64,000 nucleotides of DNA from Candidatus Latescibacterota bacterium (GTDB taxonomy: Bacteria; Latescibacterota; UBA2968; UBA8231). The translations under genes and the position numbers were made by a program. Of the stretch, positions 34,384 through 55,410 are shown piece after piece. Location of the stretch: assembly GCA_964291625.2 (NCBI GenBank), contig OZ220089.1:4704001-4768000 (forward strand), read 5' to 3'. Below the pieces are notes generated by a model that had not been told where the DNA came from, made no database searches, and saw only the letters and a list, made by a program, of their open reading frames with translations. Position 1 is the first letter of the stretch, and each line of letters begins with the position of its first letter.

Positions 34384-36255
34384 GTGGACCGGACCCGCCT
34401 GGCCGCCGCCGCCGTCTTCGGCCTCGCCGCGATCAGCTACCTGCTGACCCTCTGCCCCTCGGTCTACGTCGAGGGCTCGGGGGAGCTGATCGGGGCCGTC
34501 TGGGGCCTGGGCACGCCGCACCCGACCGGGTATCCCCTGTACGTGCTTCTGGCGAAGGTGCTCTCCTGGCTCGATCCGGGGGTTTCGCCGGCGCGGGCGG
34601 TGAACGCCGCCACCTGCCTGATGGCGGCGGCCGCCGCCGGCTCCCTGGCCCTCTTCCTCCAGGGCCGCGGGTGCGGCCCGGCGGCGGCCGCGGCGGCGGG
34701 GCTGGCCCTGGCCTGGAGCCGCACGTTCTGGAGCCAGGCGGTGATCTCCGAGGTCTACGGCCTCTTCGTCCTGGCCGCGGTGGCGCTCCTCGGCGCCGGG
34801 CTCCGGGCGCGGTCCTGCGGTCCCGCCGACCGCCCCCGGTGGCTGCTGCTGACCGGGTACGCCGCCGGCCTCGCCGCCACCTGCCACCTGCAGGCGGTCC
34901 TGCTGGTGCCGCCGGTGCTGGTGGCGGCCCTCGGGCCGGCGCGGCGTACGCCCGTCGAGGGGGGACGGCGGCTGCGCGAAGCGGGATGGATGGCGGCGGG
35001 CGGGGCCGCCGGCCTGAGCCCGTGGATCTACCTGCCGGTGCGCAACGGCGTCGGCGCCGGTTTCCACTGGGGCCCCCTGGACTCGATCCCGGCCCTGTGG
35101 GAGCACCTCACCGGGGCCACCTACCGCGGCTCCTTCTTCAGCCTGCCCTGGGGGGCCGCGGCGATCAACGCCCGGCGCCTGGGCGAGCAACTGGCGGGGG
35201 AGTGGACGCCCCTGTTCCTGCCCCTGATCGCCTGGGGGGCGGCGGCGGCCTTGCGGCGCGACCCGGTCCTGGCGCGGGTGCTGCTGGCGGCGGCGGTCCT
35301 CAACCTGGTCACGGCCCTGGGCTACCACCGCAACCCGCAGGGACTGGACGTGTTCTTCCTGCTGGCGGTGCTGTGCGCCGCCGCCCTGGCCGGGTTCGGC
35401 CTCGACGACTTGGCGCGGCGGCTGCGGGGCCGGCTCCGCCGGCTGGCGCCGGCGGCGGTCCTCGCCTGCGCCGCCATCCCCCTCGCCGCCAACCTCGGGG
35501 AGGCCGACCGGAGCGGCGCCTGGTTCCCGGACCTCTACGGGCGCCGGCTGCTGGACGAGCTGCCCCCCCGGGCGGTGCTGATCACCGAGGGGGACGACGC
35601 CAGCTTCCTCGTGGACTACCTGCAGCGGGTGGAGGGGGTGCGCCCGGACGTGACCATCGCCAACCGCCTGGGCCGCGGCGATCCCACCGCCGCCGCCGGC
35701 CCGGAGGGGGCGCCGCGGCGCCGGCGCCGGGAGCGGGCCTGGATGAACTCCGAGCGTCCCGTTCACTTCCTGGTGGCGCGGCGCCCGCCCGAGGGGTTCG
35801 GCTTCGAGCCCCGGGGGCTGAGCTATCTCGCCGTCCGCGGGCGCCAGGGCGGCGGCCCGGACAGGTCCGCCGATCCCGCGGACTGGCTGGAAGGGGCGGA
35901 TCCCGCCCTCCTGGAGTCGCCGGACCCGTGGGTGCGCAAGCTGGTGGCCAACGGCTGGTTCATGTCGGGGGAACGCCACCGCCACGCCGGGGACCTTCAG
36001 GAGGCCGCGGCGGCGTACCGGCGCGCGGCGGCGGCCGCTCCGGGATCTCAGTCGACGAATTACAACGTGAGCCTCATGTTGTTCCGCATGAACGAGTTGG
36101 GAGAGTCACTCAGGTACGCTCTTCGAGCCCTGGAGATCGATCCCGTGCGCACCGGACCGTACCGGCTGGCGGCGCAGGTCCTGTCGCGGATGGGCCGGGC
36201 GGGGGAGGCGGAGGCGCTGCAGGCGAGAGCCCGGGAATGGGCCCGGGCGCGGTGA
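34384..36255 (+). CDS. DUF2723 (TMEM260-like) membrane glycosyltransferase with C-terminal TPR
   Basis: SGEL.....LG.PHPTGYPLY, WSQAVISEVY, IYLPVR, GDD.SF..YLQ.VEG.RPDV, TPR-like helices. Confidence 0.85.
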   Translation: MDRTRLAAAAVFGLAAISYLLTLCPSVYVEGSGELIGAVWGLGTPHPTGYPLYVLLAKVLSWLDPGVSPARAVNAATCLMAAAAAGSLALFLQGRGCGPAAAAAAGLALAWSRTFWSQAVISEVYGLFVLAAVALLGAGLRARSCGPADRPRWLLLTGYAAGLAATCHLQAVLLVPPVLVAALGPARRTPVEGGRRLREAGWMAAGGAAGLSPWIYLPVRNGVGAGFHWGPLDSIPALWEHLTGATYRGSFFSLPWGAAAINARRLGEQLAGEWTPLFLPLIAWGAAAALRRDPVLARVLLAAAVLNLVTALGYHRNPQGLDVFFLLAVLCAAALAGFGLDDLARRLRGRLRRLAPAAVLACAAIPLAANLGEADRSGAWFPDLYGRRLLDELPPRAVLITEGDDASFLVDYLQRVEGVRPDVTIANRLGRGDPTAAAGPEGAPRRRRRERAWMNSERPVHFLVARRPPEGFGFEPRGLSYLAVRGRQGGGPDRSADPADWLEGADPALLESPDPWVRKLVANGWFMSGERHRHAGDLQEAAAAYRRAAAAAPGSQSTNYNVSLMLFRMNELGESLRYALRALEIDPVRTGPYRLAAQVLSRMGRAGEAEALQARAREWARAR

Positions 36256-38360
36256 TGCCGCCGGGGACGCCGGCGGGCTCCTGGAGCGGCGAGGTGGCCG
36301 CGGCCATCGCCGCCCCGGCGGCCGGCCCGGTGTGGATCGACCTGCCCCAGGGGCCGGCCGCCGCCGGCGCCCTGGTCCGCCAGCGGCTGGCCGCGCTCCT
36401 CGACCAGGGAGTGAGCGGCGACGAGCTGCTGGTCCTGGTCCCGCAGCGCCCCCGCCGGCGGCTGGAGCCCGCCGGGGGACAGGGCCGCGGACGGGCGGCG
36501 GTCGCTCCCGAGATCCACACCTTCTACGGCCTGGCGGCGCGCATGGTGCGACTGTTCTGGCCGCGGATCGCCACCGGGGCCGGCTTCGGATCGCCCCTCG
36601 ACCCGCCGGTCCTGCTGACCTACGAGACCGCCCAGTACGTGATGAAGCAGATCGTCGACCCCCGCCTCGCCGAGGGCGCCTTCGACGGCCTCTCCCTGCG
36701 GCCCCAGAGACTGCTCTCGCAGCTGCTCGACAACCTCAACAAGGCCGGCGTCAACGGTTACGACATCGCCGAGGTCGGCCCCCGGCTGCGGGACTCGTGG
36801 ACGGCCCACAGGGAGGGCCGGGAGGTCTGGTTCGACCAGGCCCAGGGCTGCATCGAGGCCTACCGCGCCCACTGCCTGGAGCACAATCTGGTCGACGTCT
36901 CCCTCGTCCTCCACCTCTTCCGCCGGCACCTGCTGCCCTCCGACGAGTTCCGGCGCTACCTGGAGGGGCGCTTCCGGCACCTGCTGGTGGAGGCGGTGGA
37001 GGAGACGGTGCCCCTGGCCCAGGACTTCATCCGGCAGCGGCTGGAGGCCGTCGACTCGGCCTGGCTGGTGGCCCGGCGGGACGGGGGGTTCCGCGTCTTC
37101 CTCGGGGTCGATCCCGAGGGCGCCTGGTCCCTGCGGGAGGTCTGCGCCCGGCGCCTGCGGGTGCCCGATGAGCCGGTGCGGCCGACGGTCACCCTCGGGC
37201 GGGAGCTGTCCGCCGGCTTCGAGCCGCCCCGGGCCCCCGGCGAGACGCCCGACGAGGCCGCCGCCGGGGCCCTGCGCCTGCTCTCGGCGCGCCACCGCGG
37301 ACCGATGGTCGCCGAGGTCGCCGCCGAAGTCGTGCGCCTCGTCGAAGCGGGCGCCGCCGAGCCGGGGGAGATCGCCGTCGTCGCCCCCCACGCCGACGGC
37401 GTCCTGCGGTTCCTGGTGAGCGAGGCCCTCCGGGAGGCGCAGATCCCCTGCGCCGTGGTCCGCCGCTTCGAGAGCCTGCGCGAGGAGCCCGAGACGAGGG
37501 TCGCCCTGGCCCTGGCGGCGCTGGCCTACCCGGCCTGGGAGCACGCCCCCCACGCCAGCGACGTCGCCGAGGCGCTGCAGGCGGCCCTGAGCCTGGACCC
37601 GGTGCGCGCAAGGCTGCTGACGCGGGCGGCGTACGACGCCGGCTCCGGCGCCCTGCGCGAGCTGGGCGAGGGGGACCCGCGGCTCCGGGAGCGGCTGCCC
37701 CCGGGGGCCCTGGAGGCCTTCGAGACCCTGCGCCGCTGGCTGCGGGCGCGCCGGCAGGGCGAGCCCCAGCCCCTCGACCTCTTCCTCCGGCAGCTCTTCG
37801 GAGAGGTGCTGTCGCGGCCCGATCTCGACCCGGGGAGGGCGGCCATGTACGCGCGCCTGATCTCCTCGGCCTCCTGGTTCCGGCGCTCCGCCCCCTCCCT
37901 GGGCACCGGCCCCGACCCCGGGGGCACGGCCGAGGGCTACGCCCGCATGGTGGAGGAGGGGGTGGTGGCCGCCTCTCACCCTGCGGGCGCACAGCCGGCG
38001 GCGGCCGCCGTCCTCGTGGTGGCGCCGGTCTACACCTACCTGCTGGAGGAGCGGTTCGACCGCTACCAGTTCTGGCTCGACGCCGGATCGATCAGCTGGT
38101 GGGAGCCGCCGCACCAGCCGCTGACCAACCCCCACGTTCTGTCCCGCCGCTGGCGCCGGGACGCCCGCTGGACCGAGGCCGTCGACCACGAGACCCGCAA
38201 CCGCACCCTCGGCCGCCTGGTGCGGGGGTTGTGCAGCCGCGCCGGCGAGGCCGTCTACCTGTGCTGGAGCGAGACCGAGGCGGGCGGGCCCCCCGAGGAG
38301 GACAGTCCCCTGCTGCGGGCGGCGGCGCGGGTCGCCGGACCGGTGGAGCGGGCGGCGTGA
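36255..38360 (+). CDS. Degenerate UvrD/AddB-like helicase-fold protein (no Walker A)
   Basis: Remnant SF1 motifs LLVLVPQR, IHTFYGLA, HLLVEAVEE, EIAVVAP, LCSRAGEAVYL. No GKT. Coupled to the downstream helicase. Confidence 0.7.
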   Translation: MPPGTPAGSWSGEVAAAIAAPAAGPVWIDLPQGPAAAGALVRQRLAALLDQGVSGDELLVLVPQRPRRRLEPAGGQGRGRAAVAPEIHTFYGLAARMVRLFWPRIATGAGFGSPLDPPVLLTYETAQYVMKQIVDPRLAEGAFDGLSLRPQRLLSQLLDNLNKAGVNGYDIAEVGPRLRDSWTAHREGREVWFDQAQGCIEAYRAHCLEHNLVDVSLVLHLFRRHLLPSDEFRRYLEGRFRHLLVEAVEETVPLAQDFIRQRLEAVDSAWLVARRDGGFRVFLGVDPEGAWSLREVCARRLRVPDEPVRPTVTLGRELSAGFEPPRAPGETPDEAAAGALRLLSARHRGPMVAEVAAEVVRLVEAGAAEPGEIAVVAPHADGVLRFLVSEALREAQIPCAVVRRFESLREEPETRVALALAALAYPAWEHAPHASDVAEALQAALSLDPVRARLLTRAAYDAGSGALRELGEGDPRLRERLPPGALEAFETLRRWLRARRQGEPQPLDLFLRQLFGEVLSRPDLDPGRAAMYARLISSASWFRRSAPSLGTGPDPGGTAEGYARMVEEGVVAASHPAGAQPAAAAVLVVAPVYTYLLEERFDRYQFWLDAGSISWWEPPHQPLTNPHVLSRRWRRDARWTEAVDHETRNRTLGRLVRGLCSRAGEAVYLCWSETEAGGPPEEDSPLLRAAARVAGPVERAA

Positions 38361-40588
38361 ACGCCTCCGACATCTTCCGCCCCCGGGAAGGGCAGAAGCA
38401 GATCCTCGAGTACGAGGGCGGCCTCATGGGGGTGGCGGCGGTCCCCGGCAGCGGCAAGACCACCACCATCGCCCATCTCGCCGCGGAGCTGCTGGACCGC
38501 CGCAGCCGGGGAGAGGGCCCCCTGTCCGAGACCGGTCGGGTCCTGGTGGTCACCTACCAGGCCGCCGCCGCCGACGCCCTGCGGGGGCGCATCGCCCGGG
38601 CCCTCGCCAGCCGCCGGCTGGTCTCCGCGGGGTACGAGGTGCGCACCCTCCACAGCCTGGCCTTCGGCATCGTCCAGACCTGGCCGGGCCACGCCGGCAC
38701 CGACTCGGAGCTGCGGGTCCTCGACGAGCGCTCCCAGATGGAGCTCGTCGACCGCGCCCTGCGCGAGTGGAGCGTGGAGAACCGGCACCGCTGGGAACCC
38801 CTGTCGCCCGGAGAGGGGCGGCCCGACGCGGGCTGGGAGGAGAGGTGGGCGCGCATCGGCCTCGACATGGGGCGCACGGTGATCGCCGCCGCCAAGAACC
38901 ACCGCCTGGACGCCGACGCGCTCCTCGGGCTGCTGGCCGGCGCCGGGGACCGCGGCGAGGAGGGCGAAGACCTGTCCCGGCGGCTCCTGCGCATCGGGGC
39001 CGAGCTGTACTCCCGCTACCAGCTCCTCGTCGAGAGCTGGGGCGGCATCGACTTCAACGACATGGTGCGCCTCGCCGTCGACCTCCTCGCCTCCCACGAG
39101 GACGTGGCCGAACGCCTCGCCGGGCGCTGGCCCGTGGTGCTCGAGGACGAGGCCCAGGACAGCGTCCCCCTCCAGGAGGAGCTCCTCGGAAGGCTGACCG
39201 CCCGCTCCGGCCACTGGATCCGCGTGGGCGACCCGAACCAGTCGATCACCAGCACCTTCACCTCCGCCGATCCCCGGTTCCTGCGCCGCTTCCTCGAGCG
39301 CGGCGAGGTACGCACCGTCGAGATGTCCGTCTCGGGCCGCTGCTCGCCGCGGATCATGGAGCTGGCCAACGGCCTGGTGGCCTGGACCTGCCGGGAGTAC
39401 CCGGTCCTCGAGGTGCGCGACGAGGCCTTCCGCCGCCAGCGCATGGAGCGATCGGGCGCCGGGGACCCGCAGCCGAACCCGGACGACGGCGACAGCGCCA
39501 TCGCCCTGCGCTCCTTCGAGGGCCGGGACGAGGAGCTGGCGTACGTGGCCCGGCGGGCCCTCGGCTTCGCCCGGGGGCGGCCGGACTGCACCCTCGCCGT
39601 CCTCGTGCCCACCAACCGTCTCGGCTTCGAGATGGCCGAGGTCCTGCGCGAGATGGACGTCTCCTTCGACGAGCGCCTCACCACCTCGCGCCGCTCCCGG
39701 GCGGTGATCGACCGCCTCGCCCGGGTCCTCACCTTCGTCGCCGACCCCCTCTCCCCGGCCGCCCTCGAGGGGGTCTTCCGCGTCACCTCGGGCGAGGAGG
39801 AGGAGGACCTGCGGCCCCTGGTGCGCAGCTGCTACCGCCCGGAGAGCCTCCTCTACCCGGCGCCGGGGGTGGCGGTGGCCGACGCCTTCCCGCCGGTGGC
39901 GCGCCTCCAGGGCGACCTGCAGCCCCTCGGCGCCCTGGCCCGCCGGGCCCGCCGCTGGCTGGAGGCGGGGCGATTCCCCGTGGACCAGCTGGCCCTGGCC
40001 GTGGCCGCCGAGCTCTTCGAGGGCGACGACCTGGCGCGGGCCCAGCGCGTCGCCGGACACCTGCGCCGGCGGGCCGACCAGCACCCGGCCTGGCGCCTCC
40101 CCGAGCTGGCTGCCGATCTGAAGCGGCCCGAGGCGGCGCGGGAGATCCTGGCGGGCGAGGAGGAGGCGGCGTACGAGCCCCGGCCCGGACAGCTCACCCT
40201 GACGACGATGCACAAGTCCAAGGGCATGGAGTGGGACCTCGTCTACCTCGTGGGCGTCGACGGCATCGAGTTCCCCGGCACCCCGGAGGACTACTTCCGC
40301 GGCCACGAGCCCCACCTCGGGGGCAACCCGGCGGAGATGGCGAGGGCCCGCCTGACGGCGCTTCTGGAGGCCGGCCCGAGGCCCTCGGCGGCGCCGACCG
40401 GCCAGCTGGAGTACATCTGCGAGCGGCTGCGCCTGCTCTACGTCGCCATCACCCGGGCGCGGCGCTTCCTGTCGGTCAGCTACAGCCGCACCATCCCCAG
40501 CGGACAGCGCACCCGCCCGGCGCCGGAGTCCCTCCTCTTCGCGCGCCTGGGGGCGCTCCTCGACGACAAGGGGGGAGGTCCCGCATGA
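38357..40588 (+). CDS. UvrD/Rep (SF1A) ATP-dependent helicase
   Basis: AVPGSGKT, TLHSLA, LEDEAQD, VGDPNQSI, TMHKSKGMEWD, LLYVAITRA. Confidence 0.92.
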   Translation: MNASDIFRPREGQKQILEYEGGLMGVAAVPGSGKTTTIAHLAAELLDRRSRGEGPLSETGRVLVVTYQAAAADALRGRIARALASRRLVSAGYEVRTLHSLAFGIVQTWPGHAGTDSELRVLDERSQMELVDRALREWSVENRHRWEPLSPGEGRPDAGWEERWARIGLDMGRTVIAAAKNHRLDADALLGLLAGAGDRGEEGEDLSRRLLRIGAELYSRYQLLVESWGGIDFNDMVRLAVDLLASHEDVAERLAGRWPVVLEDEAQDSVPLQEELLGRLTARSGHWIRVGDPNQSITSTFTSADPRFLRRFLERGEVRTVEMSVSGRCSPRIMELANGLVAWTCREYPVLEVRDEAFRRQRMERSGAGDPQPNPDDGDSAIALRSFEGRDEELAYVARRALGFARGRPDCTLAVLVPTNRLGFEMAEVLREMDVSFDERLTTSRRSRAVIDRLARVLTFVADPLSPAALEGVFRVTSGEEEEDLRPLVRSCYRPESLLYPAPGVAVADAFPPVARLQGDLQPLGALARRARRWLEAGRFPVDQLALAVAAELFEGDDLARAQRVAGHLRRRADQHPAWRLPELAADLKRPEAAREILAGEEEAAYEPRPGQLTLTTMHKSKGMEWDLVYLVGVDGIEFPGTPEDYFRGHEPHLGGNPAEMARARLTALLEAGPRPSAAPTGQLEYICERLRLLYVAITRARRFLSVSYSRTIPSGQRTRPAPESLLFARLGALLDDKGGGPA

Positions 40589-41424
40589 ACCCGCCGCCCC
40601 TGAGCCAGAGCGCCCTCTCCGCCTTCGAGCGCTGCGAGCGCCGGTTCTATCTGCGCTTCGTGCGGCGCCTCGAGTGGCCGGCGCCGCTCACCGGATCCGA
40701 GCAGGAGTGGGAGCGCTCCCGCCGCCGGGGGGAGCGGTTCCACCTGCTCGTGCAGCAGCACGCCCTCGGCCTGCCGGCGGACCGGATCGCGCACGCCTCC
40801 GGGGACGAGGAGCTCACCGCCTGGTGGGAGCGTTTCCGGCGGCACCCGCCTCCGGCCCCCGAGGGGCCGAGTCTCCGCGTCCACACGGAGTTGGAGCTGG
40901 AGGTGGTGCTGGCCGGCGGCCAGTCCCTGGTGGCTCGCTTCGACCGCCTCGAGGTCAGCGGCGGACCCGGCGGCCTGCGCCTCGACATCGTCGACTGGAA
41001 GACCGGCGCCCCGTCGAGCCGGGAGCACCTCGAGCGCAGCTGGCAGACGGCGGTGTACCGCTTCGTCGCCCTCGAGGGGGCCGGCTCCCTGGCGCCGGGG
41101 CCGGTGGCCGCCGAAGGGATCCGCTTCGTCTACTGGCAGAGCGCCCTTCCCGAGGAGCCGGTGGTGCTGCACTACGACGCCGGGCAGCACGAACAGGCGC
41201 GGCAGCGGATCGAGGCGGCGGCGGCGGTGATCGAGGAGCGGCTCGTGGAGGGGGAGGAGGGATTCCCCCGGACCGAGGACATCGGGGTCTGCCGTTACTG
41301 TCCGTACCGGTCCTACTGCGACCGCGGGCGCGAGGCCGGGCCGGGTGTGGACTTCGAGTCGGACGAGGAGGAAGGCGAGGCCGACGGTTGGCTGGCGCCG
41401 CCCGGGGACCCGGAGCCGGGGTAG
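40585..41424 (+). CDS. PD-(D/E)XK nuclease with a four-Cys Fe-S staple (AddB/Cas4-like)
   Basis: SQS.L..FERC.RRF, E, RFDRL, IVDWKTG, Q...Y, CRYCPYRSYC. Confidence 0.88.
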   Translation: MNPPPLSQSALSAFERCERRFYLRFVRRLEWPAPLTGSEQEWERSRRRGERFHLLVQQHALGLPADRIAHASGDEELTAWWERFRRHPPPAPEGPSLRVHTELELEVVLAGGQSLVARFDRLEVSGGPGGLRLDIVDWKTGAPSSREHLERSWQTAVYRFVALEGAGSLAPGPVAAEGIRFVYWQSALPEEPVVLHYDAGQHEQARQRIEAAAAVIEERLVEGEEGFPRTEDIGVCRYCPYRSYCDRGREAGPGVDFESDEEEGEADGWLAPPGDPEPG

Positions 41425-42587
41425 CCGGGTCCTTCTTGGAGGCAATCTACTATGGGCGTGATCGTCTCGATGAGTTCCCGCAGCACGGTGGCCATCTTGT
41501 GAGCCAACTCCTCATTTAGCGCACCGGTCCCAAGGTCAGCCGAGATGTCCCGGTCGTTTACGATCTGCCACTCCTGGTGGGTCCCGATGCCTCTAAGGAT
41601 GTCCTCAAGCTCAAAGGCCACTTCACCAGTGCTCCTCCGAGCATGCCTGAAGAGGACACTAGCCTTCCATCTCTTCACTTCGTCTTCCACATCCACTGGA
41701 GTCAGTAGAATCTGGTAGTATGTACCATAGCCGCTGCTCTGCTGGATCCAAGGCGCTCTCAAGTACCTCAGATTGTACCAGCGTGAGTCATAGTAGCTGC
41801 CTGCCCACCTGCTCGCCTTGTCCGGACTCATCTCGGCCGGAAGCCCATCCATCGCCAGTTCTTCGACCCTTCGCACAAAGTGTGTAACGCCATCGTCAGC
41901 GTTCGGATTCCTGCCACTGGCCGCCGGCTGGCCCTTGCCGATTCTCACCACATCTATCCCGGGTACCGGGATGATGGTCGATGCTTGCAGGTACAATGAA
42001 TCGGCTCTTGCGTCCCGATACGGGGTCAGTTGTACGCAGGTGATTAGGTTCTCGTTAGTGGCCTTCTCATTCAGCCACAAGACGGCGGTTGTCACTTCCG
42101 GCGCGAACCGGTGGCTTGCCAGAATGAGGCGCTGGTCGTGATTCAGCCTAGCATTGAGGTCTTCGACACTCTCGACATTGAGATGTTTCAAGAGGTCGGT
42201 CTCGGCATCTGACTCGGAGATTCCCCTGTAGCGGGCAAAGATGCCGACGACTTGGTCAGCCTTGGCATGGGAGAAATAGCTCGCGTACCTGATGGCTTGC
42301 CAATGAACATCCGCCCCTGAGTCATCGCGTTTGAGCTCGATGACAACCAGTTTCCCATCCGTTTCCACTGCCAGCAGATCCGGCCGCTCTCGTGCCCCTT
42401 CAAAGTCACTGAACTCCTTGCCGACCAAGAGTAAGTCGTCCCCCAAAATGCCGGGATTGTTGGATATCCACTCCTGAAGGTCCGCTCGCTCCCTCAATCC
42501 CAATTCAGCCAAGTCCACTTCCGTCAGCTCGTTGCTCTCCTGGCTCTTGGGGTCGATGCGGAGAATCTGTGGCCCGCTGTCCATCAA
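41313..42587 (-). CDS. NucS/DUF91-like (RecB-type) endonuclease domain protein
   Basis: ERADLQEWI..NP..LG, RPDLLAV..DGKLVVIELKR, QAIRY. The 3' end runs 112 bp antisense into the neighbouring gene. Confidence 0.8.
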   Translation of the reverse strand: MMDSGPQILRIDPKSQESNELTEVDLAELGLRERADLQEWISNNPGILGDDLLLVGKEFSDFEGARERPDLLAVETDGKLVVIELKRDDSGADVHWQAIRYASYFSHAKADQVVGIFARYRGISESDAETDLLKHLNVESVEDLNARLNHDQRLILASHRFAPEVTTAVLWLNEKATNENLITCVQLTPYRDARADSLYLQASTIIPVPGIDVVRIGKGQPAASGRNPNADDGVTHFVRRVEELAMDGLPAEMSPDKASRWAGSYYDSRWYNLRYLRAPWIQQSSGYGTYYQILLTPVDVEDEVKRWKASVLFRHARRSTGEVAFELEDILRGIGTHQEWQIVNDRDISADLGTGALNEELAHKMATVLRELIETITPIVDCLQEGPGYPGSGSPGGASQPSASPSSSSDSKSTPGPASRPRSQ

Positions 42588-42661
42588 GAGACTCCCGACT
42601 TAGGCATCACTTTGAAATGCAAGGGCTGTAGAATCATTAAGACACCAAATCCAGGTCCCCG

Positions 42662-43654
42662 TCACCTACTTCGAGGGGGGTTGACCTTGCCTTCCCTCAC
42701 CTCCCGACGGGTGAGCCTCAGAGGCAGCCTCTTGCCTTTCCTAGCTTTCGTGAAAACCGAATTCATCCAAAGGACCTCTGTCCGTGGATAGTCCCTTCCC
42801 GTGGTGTCCCGCGTGGTAGTATCGATGTCAACCCTCTCCCACCCGCGAGTGGCCGTCAAAATCTCGGCATACAGCTCGTTCTCATAGCCACTAACAAGCA
42901 GCATACAACGTGCCTTGACGCACTTCTTCAATAGCTCCTGGTGGAAGGTCTCATCCCGCGCATCGATCATGTATCCATGCTCTCTCCTTGTAAAGTACGG
43001 AGGATCCAAGTACATCAAGGTAGCCGGACGATCAACAAACATCTCCACCAGCTCCCGTGCATCCCGATTCTCAATCCTAATCCCACGTAGCCTATCCACC
43101 ACCCTTCCGAGCCTATCTGGCAGATTGCACCAGCGATTGACCCGTGCCTCCCTCCCCTCACGTGCATAGGACTGAGAGTATGACCACCCCGCCCTCATGC
43201 CTATGCTGCCATTCACTGTCATCATCGCCGCTACCAGAAATCTTCGAGCCTGCTCCAGGGGATCCAACTCGGGCTGCCCACCCCCCACCTCTCGATCCTC
43301 TCCACCCCCTGTCCCAGTCACCCACTCCCGGGCACGTTCGAACTCCCCCCGAGCGTAAGGAGTGAGCTCAACTGCTCGGCAGAGCCCTTCCGCATTGTCT
43401 CTCAGCTGAGTGAACAGGTTGACGATTTGCCCATCCTTGTCATTAATCACCTCGATGGGAACCGGTGGCTTGGAGAGAGTTAGAGCGGCGGATCCACAGA
43501 ATCCCTCGACCCATGCATTGTGCGGAGGAAGGATCTCAATGATTCTGCGCGCAATCGACTGCTTCGCTCCGTAGTATCCGAAGGGCGACCTGGCCGGATC
43601 TGCCACTAGTGACTGTGCATCGTGAGTCTGCGACACGTACGACCTAGCAGTCAT
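42662..43654 (-). CDS. D12-class N6-adenine DNA methyltransferase (Dam-like)
   Basis: YYGAK, VEGFCGS, EVIND, IENRDA, YLDPPY, LVSGY, EVLWMN. Confidence 0.9.
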   Translation of the reverse strand: MTARSYVSQTHDAQSLVADPARSPFGYYGAKQSIARRIIEILPPHNAWVEGFCGSAALTLSKPPVPIEVINDKDGQIVNLFTQLRDNAEGLCRAVELTPYARGEFERAREWVTGTGGGEDREVGGGQPELDPLEQARRFLVAAMMTVNGSIGMRAGWSYSQSYAREGREARVNRWCNLPDRLGRVVDRLRGIRIENRDARELVEMFVDRPATLMYLDPPYFTRREHGYMIDARDETFHQELLKKCVKARCMLLVSGYENELYAEILTATRGWERVDIDTTTRDTTGRDYPRTEVLWMNSVFTKARKGKRLPLRLTRREVREGKVNPPRSR

Positions 43655-44624
43655 CAAGCGTACCTGAACCCGGTTGATGACGCTTCCTGCACTGCACTCC
43701 ATCTGCCTCAACTTCCCAATTTGCGCTCGACCCAAGAACCGCCGTGGTAGGGGTCGGAATAATTGCCAGCTCTTCTAGGACGAACCGCCCGTCCCGGGAT
43801 ACCGGCAAAAGGTATAGGTAGTACCAATCCCCGTATCTCCGCGATGCCTCGATCTCGTTGCGTGTCCAGAAGAATCTCAGTGACCGTCTCTCCACGGCCT
43901 TGACCTCAATTAACCTCGGTGCTGCCCTGCCCCTCTCTAGGGTGAGACTCCGTACATCATACCCCGCCGCCGCATTCACCAAGGCCACATGCTGTACCGA
44001 ATCCTGATACATCTCACCTAGCCTGCTTCTTTCGTAATTCACAATCGTACTCTCCGCTGCAGTCCCAAAGGACTCTCTCTCCGCCTGTACGAGAGCTCTC
44101 CTGGCGGGTGTCTGTCTTGCCCCTGCCCAATCCTGGGCTGCCAAGTAGAGATCGAGTTGAGAATCTCTGACAAAATAGAAATCACCGTCGACACTGTGGG
44201 CAATCACTCCGAGATCAATCAGGAAGTTACGTACATTACTCTCGTAGTGTCGGTAGGGCCTCCTAGGACGGTGTCTTGGGGCACCTCCCTCGATGCTGTA
44301 AGCCTGAAGATAGGAATACAGCGCCCTACGGTAGCTATTGTCCGACCCGAGCAAGCTGTCCACAATCCACCTTCGGACCCAATCCTCATCAATGTCGGAT
44401 GGCACCTCAATCTCTATCGTACCTACTCCCGCCGTCTTGCTCCCAGCAACTTCGGTCAAGAAGGCGTGGGTCTCTTCGAAGTTTTCAGCCTGCTCCAGAT
44501 ACAACCGCTTGATGTGGCCAAGATCCCGCAGCTGCGCCCCCTGCAACACGGAGACCAACTCTCGGATCTGACTCCAGCGAAGCCCCCGAAATCGATCGTC
44601 ATCCTCCAATGAAAAGTCTCTCAT
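43644..44624 (-). CDS. DUF3883 (NO VEIN-type PD-(D/E)XK nuclease) domain protein
   Basis: G..AE..IV.YE..RL, AGYDVRS, IEVKA, FFWTRNE, YYLY. Confidence 0.82.
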   Translation of the reverse strand: MRDFSLEDDDRFRGLRWSQIRELVSVLQGAQLRDLGHIKRLYLEQAENFEETHAFLTEVAGSKTAGVGTIEIEVPSDIDEDWVRRWIVDSLLGSDNSYRRALYSYLQAYSIEGGAPRHRPRRPYRHYESNVRNFLIDLGVIAHSVDGDFYFVRDSQLDLYLAAQDWAGARQTPARRALVQAERESFGTAAESTIVNYERSRLGEMYQDSVQHVALVNAAAGYDVRSLTLERGRAAPRLIEVKAVERRSLRFFWTRNEIEASRRYGDWYYLYLLPVSRDGRFVLEELAIIPTPTTAVLGSSANWEVEADGVQCRKRHQPGSGTLDDC

Positions 44625-46491
44625 ATGCGTCCAGTTCCTCATCTTCACTGAACATATCCAGTGAGTAGATTGGATAGTCGTGATCGATGATGGCACCCAT
44701 GCGCTCTGCTTTCTCCTGTACTGTTCTCAAAATGTCGGAATCTATTGTGTCCTCATATTGAAGGAAGTAGTAGTGGGCTGGTCTCTGCTCCGACCCTCCG
44801 ATCCGATGTATTCGATCGAGTGACTGCACGTACTGGGCACAATTGTAGGACAAGTCATAGTAAATGGCCGTGGAGCAGCTCTTGTGTAGCGATACGGACT
44901 CAGCACATGCCCCGGGATTTGCCAACAGTATGTCGATCCCACTATTGGGGTCCAAGAACTCCTGAACGATCTCATGCCTAGTGAGTTCATCCGTCACACC
45001 AGAACGCTCCACCGGAGTCGCACCATAGATGAGTCTCGAGCCCGCTAGAGGTCGAAGCTTCCCGTGCAGCATCTCCAGGGTTCGGACGAAGTTGGCCCAA
45101 ATGACCACCTTCTCCTGGCCTCGCCGTAACTCCTCCACCAGCTCTAGGAGATGATGTACCTTGTTTGGTTCCTCCAGTCCATCGTAGTGTTCGATTACTT
45201 CGCCGAGCGGACCAACTGCGTCAGCAAGGTTTTCACTGTAGGCTGGAACTCCACTTGCCAGCATGGCAGAGTAGGATAGGCACTGGCGAAGCCTCATCAT
45301 ACGCCCCTTTCTCAGCCCCACCAATAAATCCAGGTCCTTCATGTAGTCCGAGGAGGAAACGTCGACGATTCTGCCAACAATCAGATCATAGATCTGCCGC
45401 TCGTATGGCTTCATCTGGATCTGAATCGGCGAATGAAAAACCTGAGGTGCAAGATCCAAGTCGTACTTTCGGACCCGATAGAATAGGGGTCCTATAGCGT
45501 CGCTCAGACACTCCCTAGCCGCCTCGAATTCCCGCTTCTGTGAGTACAGCTCGATTCGATGCCGGGACTCCTCCGGGATGGGAGAGCACTCCGGCCAGAG
45601 TACATCGAAGAGGTTGAAGGCATCTGAAAAACTCTGAGGAAAGGGTGTTCCGGTGAGAACTGCACGGCGAGACGCACAGCGGGCCACATTGACCACTGCG
45701 GTCGCCCATACGCCTCCTGGCTGCTTTACGTAATGGGCCTCATCAACGATGAAGTAGAAGTCAACCCCCTGTCGCTCAAAGAGGATCTTAACCTGTGTCC
45801 AGTCTCGCTGGAGGGTTTGGAACGTGGTCAAATACAGGTCTGCTACAGATTCCTGGTTGACCAAGTACTCTGTTCGTCGAGCCTCAATGTTGCCACCCGC
45901 GAGGATCACACACTTGGGAGCTATCCCAAGGACCTCTTGGTATTCGGTCTTCCACGGTCCGAAGCAGGAAGGAGGACCAACGACGAACAGGGAATGGAGC
46001 TTACCTTGCTGTCGTAATCTCTCGAAGACCGTCAGGATGACGGTGGTCTTGCCACTCCCTGGCACGGAGAAGTTGGCGCCGTTCACGGCCGCCAAAAGAT
46101 GTAAGGCCGCTTTGCACTGATGGTCCTTGAGGGTACGTGGTATGCTGTTCTCTAGGAATTGAAGGAACCGAGCTACCTCCTCCTCATCCAGGTTGCCTTC
46201 TTTAAGGACTCCAGCCTTCTCTCTTGCACTACGGTATAACGACTCGGCGTCCTCCTGTTCCCTGAGGCGGTCCTTCATGGTGGTTCCCAGTTCAACAGGG
46301 AAGGAGCCTCGTTCGAAGTAGTCGCTCACTTTCTTGGCCAGCTCCGTGGTATCTCCTGAAGGCCCCACGTATCGGCCATCCTTGCCGAATGAGAAGCCCC
46401 AAAACATCAGCTGGCTGGTGTGATGTGGTGCAAGATCACTTTGCTCACAGTCGAGCACCAACCTGTCTTGCTCGGCAAGAATCCGTATCAC
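44599..46491 (-). CDS. SNF2-like (SF2) helicase/translocase
   Basis: FSVPGSGKT, VDEAH, LTGTP, KVVIW, ESVSLH, QSLDRIHRIG. Confidence 0.9.
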   Translation of the reverse strand: MIRILAEQDRLVLDCEQSDLAPHHTSQLMFWGFSFGKDGRYVGPSGDTTELAKKVSDYFERGSFPVELGTTMKDRLREQEDAESLYRSAREKAGVLKEGNLDEEEVARFLQFLENSIPRTLKDHQCKAALHLLAAVNGANFSVPGSGKTTVILTVFERLRQQGKLHSLFVVGPPSCFGPWKTEYQEVLGIAPKCVILAGGNIEARRTEYLVNQESVADLYLTTFQTLQRDWTQVKILFERQGVDFYFIVDEAHYVKQPGGVWATAVVNVARCASRRAVLTGTPFPQSFSDAFNLFDVLWPECSPIPEESRHRIELYSQKREFEAARECLSDAIGPLFYRVRKYDLDLAPQVFHSPIQIQMKPYERQIYDLIVGRIVDVSSSDYMKDLDLLVGLRKGRMMRLRQCLSYSAMLASGVPAYSENLADAVGPLGEVIEHYDGLEEPNKVHHLLELVEELRRGQEKVVIWANFVRTLEMLHGKLRPLAGSRLIYGATPVERSGVTDELTRHEIVQEFLDPNSGIDILLANPGACAESVSLHKSCSTAIYYDLSYNCAQYVQSLDRIHRIGGSEQRPAHYYFLQYEDTIDSDILRTVQEKAERMGAIIDHDYPIYSLDMFSEDEELDAYERLFIGG

Positions 46492-46495
46492 ATCA

Positions 46496-47896
46496 TCACC
46501 TCTTGTTGGAGAGTCTCTTCATGTTTTTCGTGTATTGAAAAATGTCGGACTCCAACGTCTTTCCGGCTCTGATGATTCTTCCAATGATCTCGCGCGCCCT
46601 TCTTAAGTCCCTATTGTCGATAGCGCTAAGGTCCATATTGTCGTGCGTTAGTTTTCTGTGGGCTTCTTCCAGGAGTTCTATCGGCGTCTCCTTTTCCTTC
46701 AAGTGCTGATGGCTTTGAGAAGCCTTCTTGAGGTTGTATATGATTGGGCGGCGATACTTGGCCTCCCACTTCGCATCGATTTCCTCTATGCTGAGTTCTT
46801 CTCCCTCCTCATCAACGCACTCCTCTGGTGGAAGAACCGGAGCCACCTCGGCCACAATTCTCTTAATCGCCTGTTTTCCTTCTTCTGTACGGCACAACTT
46901 GCTGTAATCTCGCATGATCTTGTGGACTTTGGGCATATCAGGGACTGTTCTTAGGCGAATGATGTCGAAGGCAGCTGCCTCCAGTTCGCCAATCTCCTCT
47001 TCTTTAATCCCTATCTCCATTCGTCGCTTGGGATTGCTGAAGTAGCGAGTGAATGTGGCGCTATAGTCGGCAAAGGCCTGCCAACGGCCTTCCGAGTCTG
47101 CGATACCTCGTGAGACGGTCCGGTATAGGCCATCCCGGGCGAACTGCCTCAGGTATCGATCGATACAGGCAAGAGGATCGAGGTAGTCCTTTTGGTACCG
47201 ATCGACTACGCGCTTCAACTGCGCGTTTGTGGTGCCTGCATAGGTCGGGTCGTCCGCCACTTGTTCCTCAAGGGTAAAGCCGAGATCCACTTTGCGCTTT
47301 ATCGACAAGGCGCGATCGAAGCTGTAGTACTCGGCCCTTCCGTCACTTTGGAGCTGGTAGCGATTCTCGATTTTCTCGATTTCAACAAGGGTAGGTGGGC
47401 CGCCCTCCTCGTCTCTTCCTGGGAGGATGACAGCCTGCATGTACCTGAGGTTCTCATCGCTTGGGGACTCCTTCAGGAGACGCTCCATCGCCATCTTCCG
47501 CCGATTCCCATTGATGAGAAAGCCGTCACAGGTAATTATGACCGGTTGCTGCTGTCCCGCATGGAGAATCGACTTGACGAGAACCTCGGTGCGTTCCGGG
47601 TCCTTTCCCTCAAGGAACTCCCGGATCTTGGCTTGGTCGCCCTCATCGTTCTCGTCTAACGGGGCAACAGTCTGTTCGTAGTCCAGGACATCTGACGCGA
47701 TCCGGCCATTGTCCTTGCGATATCTCAGTAGATCGATGGGCACCCGCCATACCGGTCGCTCTGTACCGCGAACTTGGTCGTCCCGGAAATTGATAACTTC
47801 CTGCGACGGCTTGGCGGTGTCAGTTTTTCGTCTTTGGATCTCCTTGGCGAAGTCCTCGACTATCTCCCTCGGTGCCTCAGCCGTAATGCGTGCCAT
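46496..47896 (-). CDS. ParB/Srx-like N-terminal domain protein
   Basis: GQQQPVIITCDGFLINGNRR (ParB/Srx arginine motif). Strong GGAGGGAG RBS. Confidence 0.75.
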   Translation of the reverse strand: MARITAEAPREIVEDFAKEIQRRKTDTAKPSQEVINFRDDQVRGTERPVWRVPIDLLRYRKDNGRIASDVLDYEQTVAPLDENDEGDQAKIREFLEGKDPERTEVLVKSILHAGQQQPVIITCDGFLINGNRRKMAMERLLKESPSDENLRYMQAVILPGRDEEGGPPTLVEIEKIENRYQLQSDGRAEYYSFDRALSIKRKVDLGFTLEEQVADDPTYAGTTNAQLKRVVDRYQKDYLDPLACIDRYLRQFARDGLYRTVSRGIADSEGRWQAFADYSATFTRYFSNPKRRMEIGIKEEEIGELEAAAFDIIRLRTVPDMPKVHKIMRDYSKLCRTEEGKQAIKRIVAEVAPVLPPEECVDEEGEELSIEEIDAKWEAKYRRPIIYNLKKASQSHQHLKEKETPIELLEEAHRKLTHDNMDLSAIDNRDLRRAREIIGRIIRAGKTLESDIFQYTKNMKRLSNKR

Positions 47897-47946
47897 TGTC
47901 CTAAACTCCCTCCAGAGAGAGTGTTTGACTCAAGATGCCGTTTCGC

Positions 47947-47979
47947 CTAACGGACCTCGCCGTCCAGCAGACGGCCGTA
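47947..47979 (-). pseudogene. Displaced original 3' end of miaB (YGRLLDGEVR*)
   Basis: Removing the IS and one GTA copy restores in-frame ...TSHTLYGRLLDGEVR-TAG. Confidence 0.8.
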
Positions 47980-48140
47980 GGAAGTGTACCCCGTCAACTG
48001 GACAGGAATTGGGCTTGTGCAAGCGAGCGTCTCGAGATGTGATGGAGCGGTACGGCGCCCCGGGGCCCGGATCGAAGCCCGGCCTCCCGGACTTGCACCC
48101 AGGCCGGGCCCCCGGGGCCGTGAGGAGAGCCCCCCCGCGC

Positions 48141-48968
48141 TCAGGCCGCCCGGTGGTAGACATCGCTGGGGGTCTCGTAGTCGAAGGCCTGGTGCGGCCG
48201 CTCGAGGTTGTAGAAGCGGAAGTAGGCCGCCACGCCCTCGATCAACTCGGGGACGGTGTCGTAGGCCTTCAGGTAGATGTCCTCGTACTTCAGGGAGCGC
48301 CACAGCCGCTCGATGAAGATGTTGTCCAGCACCCGGCCGCGGCCGTCCATGCTCACCCGCGCCCCGGCGGCCTCGACCCGCTCGGTGAAGGCGGTGCTGG
48401 TGAACTGGGCCCCCTGGTCGGTGTTGAAGATCTCCGGCCGCCCCTGGCTCAGAGCCTCCTCCAAAGCCTCCAGGCAGAAGGCCGCGTCGAGGGTGTTGGA
48501 GACCCGCCAAGCCAGCACGTAGCGGCTGAACCAGTCCATGACCGCCACCAGGTAGACGAAGCCGGAAGGCATCGGCAGATAGGTGATGTCGCTGCACCAC
48601 ACCTGGTCCGGCCGGTCCACGGTCATCCCTCGCAGCAGATACGGATAGACCCGGTGCTGAGGGTTGGGAGTGGTCGGTCGCGGGCGAGGATAGATCGCCT
48701 GCAGGCCCATGACCTTCATCAGGCGATGCACGCGCTTGAGATTGACCGGGTGCCCCTGCCGCCTCAGAGCCGCGCAGATCCGGCGCACGCCGTAGACCGG
48801 GCGCTTGGTGTAGATCCGGTCGATGACGTTCATCAGGTCGAGGGTGAGCGGGTCTGGCCCCTCCGGGTGGTAGTAGAAACTGGATCGGGCCAGCCCGAGC
48901 AGCTCGCACTGCCGGTGCACGCTCAGCTGGGCGTGGCGCGGCTCGATGAGAGCGCGGCGCTCAGCCAC
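48141..48968 (-). CDS. IS3 transposase OrfB (DDE integrase core)
   Basis: [32 protein letters not shown]. Confidence 0.95.
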
Positions 48969-49250
48969 CGACAGCCTCGTGTTTTTTTTGAAGCCACTCC
49001 AGCTCCATCTGCAGGCGACCGATCTGCTCGTAGAGCTCGGGCACCGAGGCGGCCTCCTCGTCCGGCCGCCGGCCCCCGGGGCCCTGGAAGGCCTCGGGCA
49101 ACCGCTCCAGCAACTGCTTCTTCCAGCCGTGGATCTGGCTGGGGTGGACGGAGAACTTGCGGGCCAGCTCGTTGACCGTCTGCCGCTCGCGCAGGGCCTC
49201 CAGAGCCACCTTGGCCTTAAACTGAGCCGAGTGCGTCTTGCGTTTCCTCG

Positions 49251-49254
<4 letters not shown>
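48961..49254 (-). CDS. IS3 transposase OrfA (HTH)
   Basis: [43 protein letters not shown]8 run at 48982-48989 is the candidate -1 frameshift site. Confidence 0.93.
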
Positions 49255-50716
<1,462 letters not shown>

Positions 50717-50720
<4 letters not shown>

Positions 50721-52069
50721 ACCAGCTCTCCGAAGGTCTCGCTCTCGCGGGCCCGGGTGAGGGCCACCTCGACGAAGGAGTTCGCCCGGACGGGGGTGCC
50801 GGCGGTCTCGAAGCGGACGCGGATGTAGTTGTCGGTGAGCCCGGAGGCCAGGCCGTCCCCGCCGGCATCCTCCACCAGGACGCGCACCCTGCGGCCGAGG
50901 TGGCGGCGGTGGAAGTCCAGCCGCTTGCCCTCGCCGAGGGCGATCAGCTCGCGCACCCGGCGGCTCTTCACCGGGCCGCTGCAGTGGCCGCCGAGGCGCT
51001 GCGCCGGCGTCTCCTGGCGCTCGGAGTAGGGGAAGACGTGCAGGTAGGTGACGGGCAGGCGCTCCAGGAGGCGGCGCGTAGAGGCGAAGTGTTCCTCGCC
51101 CTCCCCCGGGAAGCCGGCCATGACGTCGGCGCCGATGGCGCACCCGGGCAGCCGGTCGGCGATGCGGGTGATGCGCTCGGCGTAGCGCGCCGCCGTGCAG
51201 CGCCGGCCCATGCGCCGCAGCACGCGGTCGTCGCCGCTCTGCAGGGGCACGTGGAAGTGGCGGCAGACGCTCTCCGTGTCGGCGGCGATGTCGATGAGCC
51301 CGTCGCTCACGTACCCGGGCTCGATCGAGTTGAGGCGGATGCGCTCCAGCCCCTCGACGGCGGCGAGCTGCCGCACCAGGTCGGCGAAGTCGTCGGACTC
51401 GTCGGACTCGTCCAGATCGCGGCCGTAGGAGCCGGTGTGGACGCCGGTCAGGGCCAGCTCGCGGTAGCCGGCCTCGACCATCTTGCGGGCCTGGGCCAGG
51501 ACCTCGGCCGGCGGCCGGCTGGCCCCGGGGCCGCGGACGCTGGGGATGATGCAGAAGGTGCAGTGCTCGTCGCAGCCGTCCTGGATCTGCAGGGTGCCGC
51601 GGGTGCGGCCCTCGGCGACGGCGCCGTCGATCTGCAGGAAGCGCGTGGTGGGGGGCCGCCTTCCCGGGGCGGGGCCCGGCGCCGGGGCCTCCGGGGATCC
51701 CTGGTGGACGGCCGCCCCGGGGGGGCCGCCGAGGTGCTCCCGCACCCTGTCGACGAGACCGGCCTTGTCGGTGTTCGGGACCACCAGGCCGGCGCCGGCG
51801 CCGCGCAGCTCCTCGGGCCGGCGCTGGGCGTAGCAGCCGGTGGCCACCACCAGGGCCTCCGGGTTGCTCCGGCGGGCGCGGCGCACGGCGCGGCGCGAGT
51901 CGGCGTCGCCGGAGCCGGTGACCGTGCAGGTGTTGACCACGTACACGTCGGCCTCCTCGGCGAAGGGGACCACGCGCCAGCCGCTGCCGCCGAACCCGGC
52001 CTTGAGGGCCTCGGCCTCGTACTGGTTCAGCTTGCAGCCGAGATGATGGACGGCGACGCGCGGGGACAC
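50717..52069 (-). CDS. mtaB: tRNA t6A37 methylthiotransferase MtaB
   Basis: LGCKLNQYE, NTCTVT, IQDGCDEHCTFCIIP..RG, LTGVH.GSYG, HVFPYS.R. Confidence 0.92.
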
Positions 52070-52124
52070 CGGCGGAAGACCTTGTGGGAGAAGGAGTAGC
52101 AGAGAACCGCGAGAGCTGCCAGGG

Positions 52125-52153
52125 AAGGTACGCCGGAGGCCGGAGGGGCGCAA
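52125..52153 (-). promoter_or_regulatory. Putative sigma70 promoter for mtaB-miaB
   Basis: Minus strand TTGCGC-N17-TACCTT. Confidence 0.45.
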
Positions 52154-52163
52154 CGGCGAGGCT

Positions 52164-52192
52164 TTGACGGGGAGAGCGGGCGCCGGTAGCCT
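52164..52192 (+). promoter_or_regulatory. Putative sigma70 promoter for the DUF362 gene
   Basis: TTGACG-N17-TAGCCT. Confidence 0.55.
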
Positions 52193-52239
52193 ATGAGGGA
52201 AAGCTCTGCCGCCGGGAAACCCTATCGAAGGCATCGCTC

Positions 52240-55358: not shown

Positions 55359-55410
55359 TTCACTCTCCTTACGAATCTACGGGCTCAATGCATAGTGCAA
55401 GAGCGGGGCG

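Follow-up and report, generated by a model that had tools for sequence, protein, structure and literature searches.

We describe a four-gene cassette that is probably a restriction-modification (RM)-like defence system, most likely restricting phages and other incoming DNA. It was found in 64,000 nucleotides of the genome of a Candidatus Latescibacterota bacterium (contig OZ220089.1, positions 4,704,001 to 4,768,000), and this whole stretch is called the window below. The cassette lies on the minus strand at 42662-47896 and consists of four intact, co-oriented and tightly coupled open reading frames (ORFs). They encode a ParB-like protein, an SNF2 ATPase, a predicted nuclease with a winged helix-turn-helix (wHTH) and a NOV_C domain, and a putative D12-class DNA methyltransferase. 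We infer the function from the linkage of the genes, their intact motifs, the folds of their products, the exchange of methylase and effector between genomes, the recent insertion of the cassette and a binding model that passed. Precedent adds to the defence reading, because in the accessible parts of the sources AbiR is described as methylase-dependent and HmaA as active against phage T4. In our judgement, the cassette is an unnamed variant of an AbiR-like, RM-like defence class, with its function deduced in this way.

Gene layout and conservation of the cassette

A preliminary description of the window, made from the letters alone, had reported four co-oriented, tightly coupled genes with a 4-nt gap and overlaps of 26 and 11 nt, and the ORF coordinates agree with it. 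The gap separates genes 1 and 2, and the two overlaps result when gene 3 is started at Met25 (44624) and gene 4 at Met28 (43654). In an alignment, Met25 of the nuclease is kept in homologues whose ORF extends upstream as well. The apparent conservation upstream of this residue is explained most simply by the conserved C-terminus of SNF2, which is encoded there in the other frame. Matches of methylase homologues start mostly at residues 26-50. A GC content below that of the flanks had also been claimed, and it amounts to 0.52-0.58 over 41500-47999 compared to 0.74-0.78 on both sides. All motifs quoted in the preliminary description are present in the translations (NGNRR; GSGKT, DEAH and QSLDRIHRIG; AGYD...IEVK; DPPY). 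Its assignment of the SNF2, DUF3883 and methyltransferase genes is shared by Pfam, which returned PF00176 SNF2-rel_dom (3.2e-14) for gene 2, PF13020 NOV_C, formerly DUF3883 (3.4e-13), for gene 3 and PF02086 MethyltransfD12 (6.5e-13) for gene 4. Scans for promoters and terminators gave fewer sites than in shuffled sequence and carry no information on this point.

A profile of the ParB-like protein detected relatives in 118 of the species genomes scanned, and 80 loci were retained. Those with 5.4 kb or more of downstream sequence were counted as complete (n=62). By their record titles, the 80 loci span more than 20 phyla, including Latescibacterota, Planctomycetota, Verrucomicrobiota, Acidobacteriota, Chloroflexota, Bacteroidota, Nitrospirota, Omnitrophota, Patescibacteria, Pseudomonadota and Actinomycetota. 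An SNF2 gene follows the ParB-like gene in 76 of the 80 loci, and the contigs of the remaining 4 stop within 1.7 kb. The junction of the two genes is a 4-nt overlap in most loci when the longest-ORF starts are used. A DNA methyltransferase was found in all 62 complete loci, 46 times of the D12 class and 16 times of the PF01555 N6_N4_Mtase family, and a NOV_C nuclease in 56. Pfam gave PF01555 for 16 out of 16 fourth genes tested in loci that lack a D12 homologue, 13 of them in complete loci; PF01555 was assigned in L073 and L079 by tblastn only and in L061 by Pfam. In 4 loci the methylase is located upstream or on the opposite strand. The 6 complete loci without NOV_C all belong to Bacteroidota and carry other candidate effectors in its place, namely HNH genes, a nucleosidase or a protein without Pfam match (Table 1). 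No further conserved gene was seen in the 62 complete loci.

A maximum-likelihood tree was built from 62 ParB-like proteins (quick method, LG+G4), excluding ORFs shorter than 440 aa and unlabelled loci. On this tree the methylase family switches at least 6 times, a number that is also forced by the well-supported branches, and none of 500 shuffles was as low. The effector switches at least 4 times. The constant core is thus formed by the ParB-like protein, the SNF2 ATPase and some DNA methylase, and the effector is exchangeable. Such a pattern would be predicted if the host were shielded from the remaining parts by methylation. The preliminary description had treated the four genes as one unit and had named the co-occurrence of homologues as a check. 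The counts of SNF2, methylase and NOV_C genes given above show the co-occurrence, and the unit is conserved and self-contained, with a methylase that is obligatory yet exchangeable, which fits self-marking.

Some copies of the cassette are decayed, including those in L015, L018, L029, L073 and L079. In L015 (9400-12929) the SNF2 gene is apparently split by an inserted ORF of ~1.5 kb (10269-11822). In a same-family genome (G017) the ParB-like gene occurs in two pieces with an in-frame TAA (L086/L087).

The constancy of the ParB-like/SNF2 pair, next to an effector and a methylase that are exchanged, could also mean that the cassette consists of two units. The NOV_C nuclease and the methylase would then be an ordinary type II RM system, and the pair would be a separate accessory module that attaches to different RM systems and boosts or backs them. 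The nuclease brings along a wHTH for DNA binding, and distant homologues of the pair are located directly downstream of type III Mod/Res genes in L081 and L083, both of which would suit such a division. However, the methylase still stands beside the pair in the 6 complete loci without NOV_C and is therefore tied to the pair and not solely to the nuclease. Furthermore, the pair is found without a methylase in none of the 62 complete loci, and in most loci translational coupling extends over all four genes. We therefore consider two separate units unlikely and treat the four genes as one RM-like system.

Table 1. Positions of the cassette genes, their predicted domains, other genes of the island and features of related loci. 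Positions refer to the window unless a locus or protein is named.
Feature	Position	Strand	Remarks
Gene 1, ParB-like protein	46496-47896	-	466 aa
ParB-type NTP-binding-like domain (predicted)	gene 1, ~residues 38-187		N-terminal
Helical middle domain (predicted)	gene 1, ~residues 189-336		
Long C-terminal helices (predicted)	gene 1, residues 337-466		
Gene 2, SNF2 ATPase	44599-46491	-	630 aa
Gene 3, predicted wHTH + NOV_C nuclease	43644-44624	-	326 aa from Met25; longest ORF 43644-44696, 350 aa
wHTH (predicted)	gene 3, ~residues 77-173		
Nuclease domain (predicted)	gene 3, residues 178-323		
Gene 4, putative D12 methyltransferase	42662-43654	-	330 aa from Met28; longest ORF 42662-43735, 357 aa
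NucS_C-like nuclease-fold protein	41313-42587	-	424 aa; PADLOC single-gene candidate PDC-S11, 9.7e-64, residues 10-219
IS3-type transposase (rve, HTH_21, rve_3)	48141-48968	-	right edge of island, GC 0.66-0.67
Possible orfA of IS3-type element	48961-49305	-	
HNH genes	L062; L065 7506-8000		weak HNH_2 match, E 0.002-0.003 (below curated cut-off), on 160-aa N-terminal extension of ParB-like protein
PNP_UDP_1 nucleosidase in place of NOV_C	L075 7176-7997		upstream of ParB-like gene
~300-aa protein without Pfam match	L068 6919-7824; L071 6924-7838; L076 3125-4045		upstream of ParB-like gene
ParB-like + ~620-aa SNF2 pair	L081, NZ_CP087603.1 2002-10016		directly downstream of type III Mod, Res; one gene string
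ParB-like + ~620-aa SNF2 pair	L083, NZ_CP076826.1 2062-10169		directly downstream of type III Mod, Res; one gene string

Protein folds and a predicted complex

The product of gene 1 is predicted to have a ParB/Srx fold. Its AlphaFold2 (AF2) model, calculated from a 25-sequence alignment, has a pLDDT of 84.5, and the best Foldseek matches of this model are all ParB, Noc, KorB and Spo0J chains (E ~1e-3, probability 1.00). The six best matches by VIA-align are pNOB8 ParB-N (5k5d_B; Z 8.6, rmsd 4.3, 204 aligned), PadC (Z 8.3, rmsd 2.3, 95 aligned), KorB (Z 8.2, rmsd 2.4, 93 aligned), sulfiredoxin (Z 7.9, rmsd 2.9, 85 aligned), Spo0J (Z 7.0, rmsd 4.3, 168 aligned) and the serine kinase SerK (Z 6.7, rmsd 3.6, 85 aligned). 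Z values of 6.7-8.6 are middling on the scale of this tool, and the fold is assigned because the top structural rows uniformly belong to one family. Two stretches, G130-N131-R132-R133 and E177-N178-R179-Y180-Q181, are invariant in 25 sequences of the family. They look similar to two boxes of ParB, the arginine box GERR and the box ENLQR, with which CTP is bound and hydrolysed. Both the structural matches and the invariant GNRR speak for the ParB/Srx-like assignment of the preliminary description. Judged by its fold, the model suggests that the protein could be a nucleotide-gated switch.

On the level of sequence, the support for a kinship with ParB is weak but consistent. The PHROG family 'ParB-like partition protein' matches residues 100-142 with 5e-5, and PF18763 ddrB-ParB gives a weak match in 4 of 25 family members (best E 0.0058). 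No PDB chain was matched by sequence, either with the single sequence or with the family profile. The family is highly conserved and its members are numerous: 1486 of the 8000 candidates scored have E <=0.001, and a profile search in 1.84 billion representatives gave 1379 clusters at E <=0.001, 125 of them at <=1e-30. The top 120 relatives are 58-86% identical and have a length of ~467 aa; no Pfam domain is recorded for them, and the source names, where given, read 'hypothetical protein'.

Gene 2 appears to encode a bona fide Snf2-family double-stranded DNA (dsDNA) translocase, as judged by its motifs and family matches. In addition to SNF2-rel_dom, Pfam found Helicase_C (1.6e-07) and ResIII. 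A profile of 30 SNF2 sequences matches the structures of ISWI, DDM1, Ino80 and SsoRad54 at 1e-24 to 1e-21, and Walker A GxGKT, DEAH, TGTP and QSLDRIHR are invariant across these sequences. The N-terminal domain (~residues 1-110) is specific to the family. Neither Pfam nor PADLOC found a fused nuclease domain in the 630-aa protein. The homologues are 43-69% identical to the copy in the window.

For gene 3, the AF2 model (pLDDT 88.6) predicts a C-terminal PD-(D/E)XK nuclease domain that is preceded by a winged helix, with a further helical unit at the N-terminus. The nuclease domain matches I-Ssp6803I (Z 9.0, rmsd 3.8, 112 aligned), Hjc (Z 8.7, rmsd 2.9, 102 aligned) and NhoI (Z 8.2, rmsd 4.8, 113 aligned), and the wHTH matches SmtB (Z 7.2, rmsd 4.2, 86 aligned) and HypR (Z 6.8, rmsd 2.5, 68 aligned). 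Residues E191, E198, D223, E240 and K242 are invariant in 30 nuclease sequences. PADLOC gave PD-T4-1 with 3.9e-11. The nuclease is the fastest-evolving component, with homologues that are 24-40% identical to the copy in the window.

Gene 4 carries a DPPY motif and matches the PADLOC model MTase_II PDLC03244 (5.1e-53), and its product is accordingly classed, on sequence, as a putative D12-class (Dam-like) N6-adenine DNA methyltransferase. The nearest solved structure by sequence is DpnM with just 1.6e-4, and the target site can therefore not be inferred from it. At L076 (7593-8909) the D12 methyltransferase of the cassette carries a C-terminal fusion with two DUF1508 repeats (1e-29).

The preliminary description had suggested modelling of the proteins as a complex, and the ParB-like/SNF2 pair passed this check. 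The SNF2 ATPase (630 aa) and residues 1-370 of the ParB-like protein were folded together with our own alignments. The pair reached an ipSAE of 0.61 (runs 0.56, 0.61 and 0.61) compared to 0.38 for the best of 3 controls, with a contact agreement between runs of at least 95% and a partner pLDDT of at least 74. The ipSAE mark is met by 116 of 157 solved complexes and by 2 of 215 mismatched pairs, a calibration that is rough here since own alignments were used. In the model, residues 21-30, 54, 58, 61 and 307-315 of the SNF2 ATPase contact residues 247-251 and 286-310 of the ParB-like protein. The interface covers the invariant or nearly invariant residues Q27, K54 and Y58 on the SNF2 side and Q251, K290, E294, G303, E306 and F310 on the ParB-like side. 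The ParB-like protein is thus predicted to dock on the family-specific N-terminal domain of the SNF2 ATPase. To our knowledge, no structure of a ParB-like/SNF2 pair has been solved.

These predictions can be combined into a possible mechanism. The D12-class methyltransferase would mark the host DNA with N6-methyladenine (m6A). The ParB/Srx-fold protein, probably an NTP-gated DNA-binding switch or clamp, may license or load the SNF2 motor on unmarked DNA, with its helical middle domain sitting on the N-terminal domain of SNF2. The SNF2 ATPase would then translocate along the dsDNA, and the wHTH + PD-(D/E)XK NOV_C protein would bind and cut the DNA. The divergent wHTH of the nuclease seems to be the best candidate for a reader of the site or of the methylation state. 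A ParB-like sensor or clamp that loads SNF2 had already been proposed in the preliminary description. Binding of the two proteins to each other now has model support; the loading itself and the order in which the DUF3883 protein cuts are conjectural parts of the scheme.

Inserted island, neighbouring genes and competing readings

The cassette is part of an island of 7.9 kb (41425-49356) that also contains a NucS-like gene and an IS3-type element. The preliminary description had listed the four cassette genes correctly and had overlooked these other two in the same island. On the left, the island is flanked by a gene that ends at 41424 and encodes a PD-(D/E)XK/Cas4-like C-terminal domain with a Cys cluster, and on the right by a MiaB-like radical-SAM gene (49357-50868). 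Four same-genus genomes were checked for homologues of the flanking genes, which are 76, 192 and 147 bp apart in three of them (G002, G006 and G009) and far apart in G007. Since the flanks are adjacent in 3 of 4 genomes, 41425-49356 is an insertion. The ParB-like protein occurs in 3 of 41 related genomes, including the source genome, and was not found in 9 other genomes of the same genus; the completeness of the related genomes compared is 76-96%. The cassette was acquired horizontally and is a recent insertion at this site. The IS3-type element may have helped the insertion. No tRNA genes were detected in 36000-56000, and a search for direct or inverted repeats flanking the island gave no convincing ones.

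The NucS-like gene was considered as a fifth component of the system and rejected, as none of the 80 related loci has it. More probably, it is a defence candidate in its own right. A second dip in GC content is located at 54000-56000 (0.54 in 54500-55499 compared to ~0.74 around it), which suggests a second small foreign insert.

Beside the cassette in other genomes we examined 127 flanking ORFs, of which ~14 are of defence type (4 AbiEii, RloB, 2 HEPN, KwaB, HsdR, 2 McrBC-like and others; a count without a baseline). The mix of neighbours fits a self-contained mobile module.

This mobile and sporadic occurrence would also be expected of an abortive-infection or addiction module. In such a module the ParB-like protein, SNF2 and the nuclease would form a toxin that is curbed by methylation and set off when the cell is infected or the element is lost. 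AbiR is called abortive infection and is toxic without its methylase, according to the accessible part of a review (PMC13064643). On the other hand, the methyltransferase is obligatory (62 of 62 loci) and its family was swapped at least 6 times, which is a signature of marking self against non-self, and RM systems act as addiction modules too. A dedicated abortive module seems quite unlikely to us, and an RM-like system remains the preferred explanation.

Several observations weigh against an RM-like defence system. The defence role is argued from architecture and analogy. The ParB-like protein has no match in Pfam (E <=0.01), in NCBIfam or in PADLOC, the latter even with E up to 10. The 127 neighbouring ORFs are heterogeneous and mostly housekeeping genes (RecA, UvrA, SRP54, MutL etc.), and besides the few of defence type named above, ~11 code for integrases, transposases or conjugation functions. 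Nuclease and methylase show a weak tendency to be swapped together (4 changes on the tree of NOV_C compared to 7 on the ParB-like and 5 on the SNF2 tree; 48 loci). It is too weak to count as support, and NOV_C and methylase could be a type II pair. In addition, two of the proteins are close to phage families. The strongest family match of the SNF2 ATPase is the long phage family phrog_62 'DNA helicase' (6.6e-62), and it is far closer to this family than to any defence SNF2, the best defence model being PADLOC ZorD with a partial match of 4e-26. The methylase matches the phage family phrog_56 with 7.5e-53. Finally, DarB methylase-SNF2 dyads and DdrB-like ParB domains are described, in the accessible part of the source, as anti-restriction components of polyvalent proteins of phages and plasmids (PMC5512222).

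The phage matches of SNF2 and methylase, together with this occurrence of dyad and ParB domains in polyvalent anti-restriction proteins, would be accounted for by a counter-defence module. The cassette would then be a split DarB-like dyad with a DdrB-like ParB that methylates the DNA of the incoming element in order to evade host restriction. The ddrB-ParB match in 4 of 25 members would suit this, as would the location of distant relatives on conjugative and mobilizable plasmids. However, 38 pattern matches in viral contigs yielded no confirmed relative, and 56 of 62 loci conserve a nuclease with intact catalytic residues. Chromosomal housekeeping genes make up most of the flanks, in which 1 gene among 127 (TrbI) belongs to conjugation. 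The methylase has a gene of its own, which is swapped, sometimes inverted and not fused to SNF2. We regard counter-defence as very unlikely, and a restricting, RM-like system explains the cassette better.

More tentatively, ParB-fold proteins bound to SNF2 motors may define a distinct class of immune systems that is widespread and guarded by methylation, with AbiR as its sole tested member. A nucleotide-gated DNA clamp or switch of the ParB type, instead of a specificity subunit, would decide where the translocating motor and an exchangeable effector attack the DNA. Effectors in such a class could be NOV_C, HNH or PLD nucleases, type III Res or even a nucleosidase. If this is true, the cassette offers a compact model for AbiR, which has been known for decades and is yet poorly understood, and a ParB-type nucleotide switch is added to the controls of restriction-like systems. 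ParB proteins are CTP-gated clamps in chromosome segregation, and teaming up with a restriction motor would give the fold a new role. Pipelines for defence annotation that are based on Pfam, PADLOC and NCBIfam would miss this family in more than 20 phyla, with a key protein that has no model.

Comparison with known systems

The preliminary description had called the system undescribed and had stated that the hallmark genes of named systems are missing. Indeed, the 7.9-kb insertion lacks those of DISARM, BREX, Dnd, Dpd, Zorya and type I/III RM. Neither the ParB-like protein nor the system as a whole is covered by a model in PADLOC, Pfam or NCBIfam. In full-text literature no named system of a ParB-like protein, SNF2, DUF3883 and a methylase was found, with DefenseFinder models and paper supplements outside the scope of the search. 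The word 'undescribed' therefore holds as far as no family model or name was found, but is tempered by the layout of AbiR and the precedent of Hma. Membership in DISARM, Zorya, Dpd, BREX and Hma was rejected because of missing hallmark genes and sub-threshold scores. The SNF2 ATPase is a feature shared with Dpd and DISARM (DpdE/DrmD), and Dpd also includes a ParB-like ATPase (DpdB). However, the DpdA transglycosylase, DrmA, DrmB (DUF1998) and DrmC (PLD) are absent from the insertion. The NCBIfam model of DrmD scores 46.5 bits compared to a cut-off of 610, models of DpdE match partially, and ZorD scores 24.9 bits compared to a cut-off of 1500, with no ZorA/ZorB genes present. The parts of a type II RM system, a wHTH + PD-(D/E)XK nuclease and a methylase, are present and, in the loci examined, always occur with the pair, but these loci were found via the ParB-like protein.

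DarB/DdrB proteins have an adenine methylase, SNF2 and the ParB superfamily in common with the cassette, and the SNF2 ATPase is nearest to a phage family. These proteins are giant fusions that are delivered with the invading DNA, whereas the window has four chromosomal genes including a conserved nuclease.

Closer to the cassette is Hma, or Type-1 BREX-related, which likewise combines an SNF2 motor, a DUF3883/NOV_C nuclease, an adenine methylase and a third, NTPase-like component. In the accessible parts of the sources, HmaA is an SNF2-DUF3883 fusion that defends against phage T4 (PMC11232893), and HmaB and HmaC are a DUF1156 methylase and a DUF499 ATPase, respectively, with an RM-like reading of the system (PMC12839542). 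In contrast to the fusion in HmaA, SNF2 and nuclease are separate genes in the window. The third component of Hma is a STAND/ORC-type DUF499 ATPase, which none of the five island genes encodes, instead of a ParB-fold protein, and its methylase is of the DUF1156 type instead of D12 or PF01555. The PADLOC model of HmaA covers just residues 458-596 of the SNF2 ATPase, which correspond to the C-terminal helicase lobe (7.8e-09). In sum, the cassette has the two enzymatic activities in common with Hma, but none of the proteins that define it.

Most similar is AbiR from the Lactococcus lactis plasmid pKR223, which, as far as the accessible part of the review (PMC13064643) describes it, has the same combination of a ParB-like protein, SNF2 and a nuclease with a linked DNA methyltransferase. 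There, AbiRb resembles ParB, and AbiRii was superimposed on PDB 5K5D, the same structure that is the top structural match of the ParB-like protein of the window. In AbiRc, a Snf2 ATPase at the C-terminus is preceded by an N-terminal domain similar to restriction endonucleases (superimposed on 7CLG). AbiRa is likened to sigma70, and a complex of AbiRa, AbiRb and AbiRc is predicted. The system is described as abortive infection that lowers phage DNA replication; it requires the LlaKR2I methylase and is toxic without it. In the cassette family, a methyltransferase is linked in the genome in 62 of 62 complete loci. The two systems also differ. In AbiR a PLD-like nuclease is fused to the N-terminus of SNF2, whereas the window has a separate wHTH + PD-(D/E)XK NOV_C protein. 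AbiR has the sigma70-like AbiRa, and Pfam shows no such domain among the four window genes. The methylase of AbiR comes from a neighbouring type II RM system, whereas the adenine methylase of the window lies within the operon.

A set of 23 plasmids, most of them from lactic acid bacteria or enterococci, carries distant homologues of the ParB-like/SNF2 pair. One locus on a Lactiplantibacillus plasmid (L082) encodes a C5 methylase, a ParB-like protein and an SNF2 protein with an N-terminal PbeA/PLD_Helicase-like domain. Compared to the proteins of the window, its ParB-like protein gives a BLASTP E of 1e-20 and its SNF2 protein an E of 9e-39. By its architecture this locus appears AbiR-like, with a layout as described in the review, AbiR being compared by description. 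A tblastn search of plasmids with the plasmid SNF2 fusion gave 89 records, 52 of them from Enterococcus and none annotated as AbiR. The pairs downstream of type III Mod and Res (L081 and L083 in Table 1) are located on conjugative plasmids of Lactococcus and Lactiplantibacillus; their ParB-like proteins have 27-30% identity and their SNF2 proteins an E of 1e-46. Precedents for both features of the cassette, the logic of a methylase-guarded SNF2 motor with a nuclease and the pair of a ParB-like protein with SNF2, are found in Hma and AbiR. In its layout, AbiR is the closest known system, and Hma is the second.

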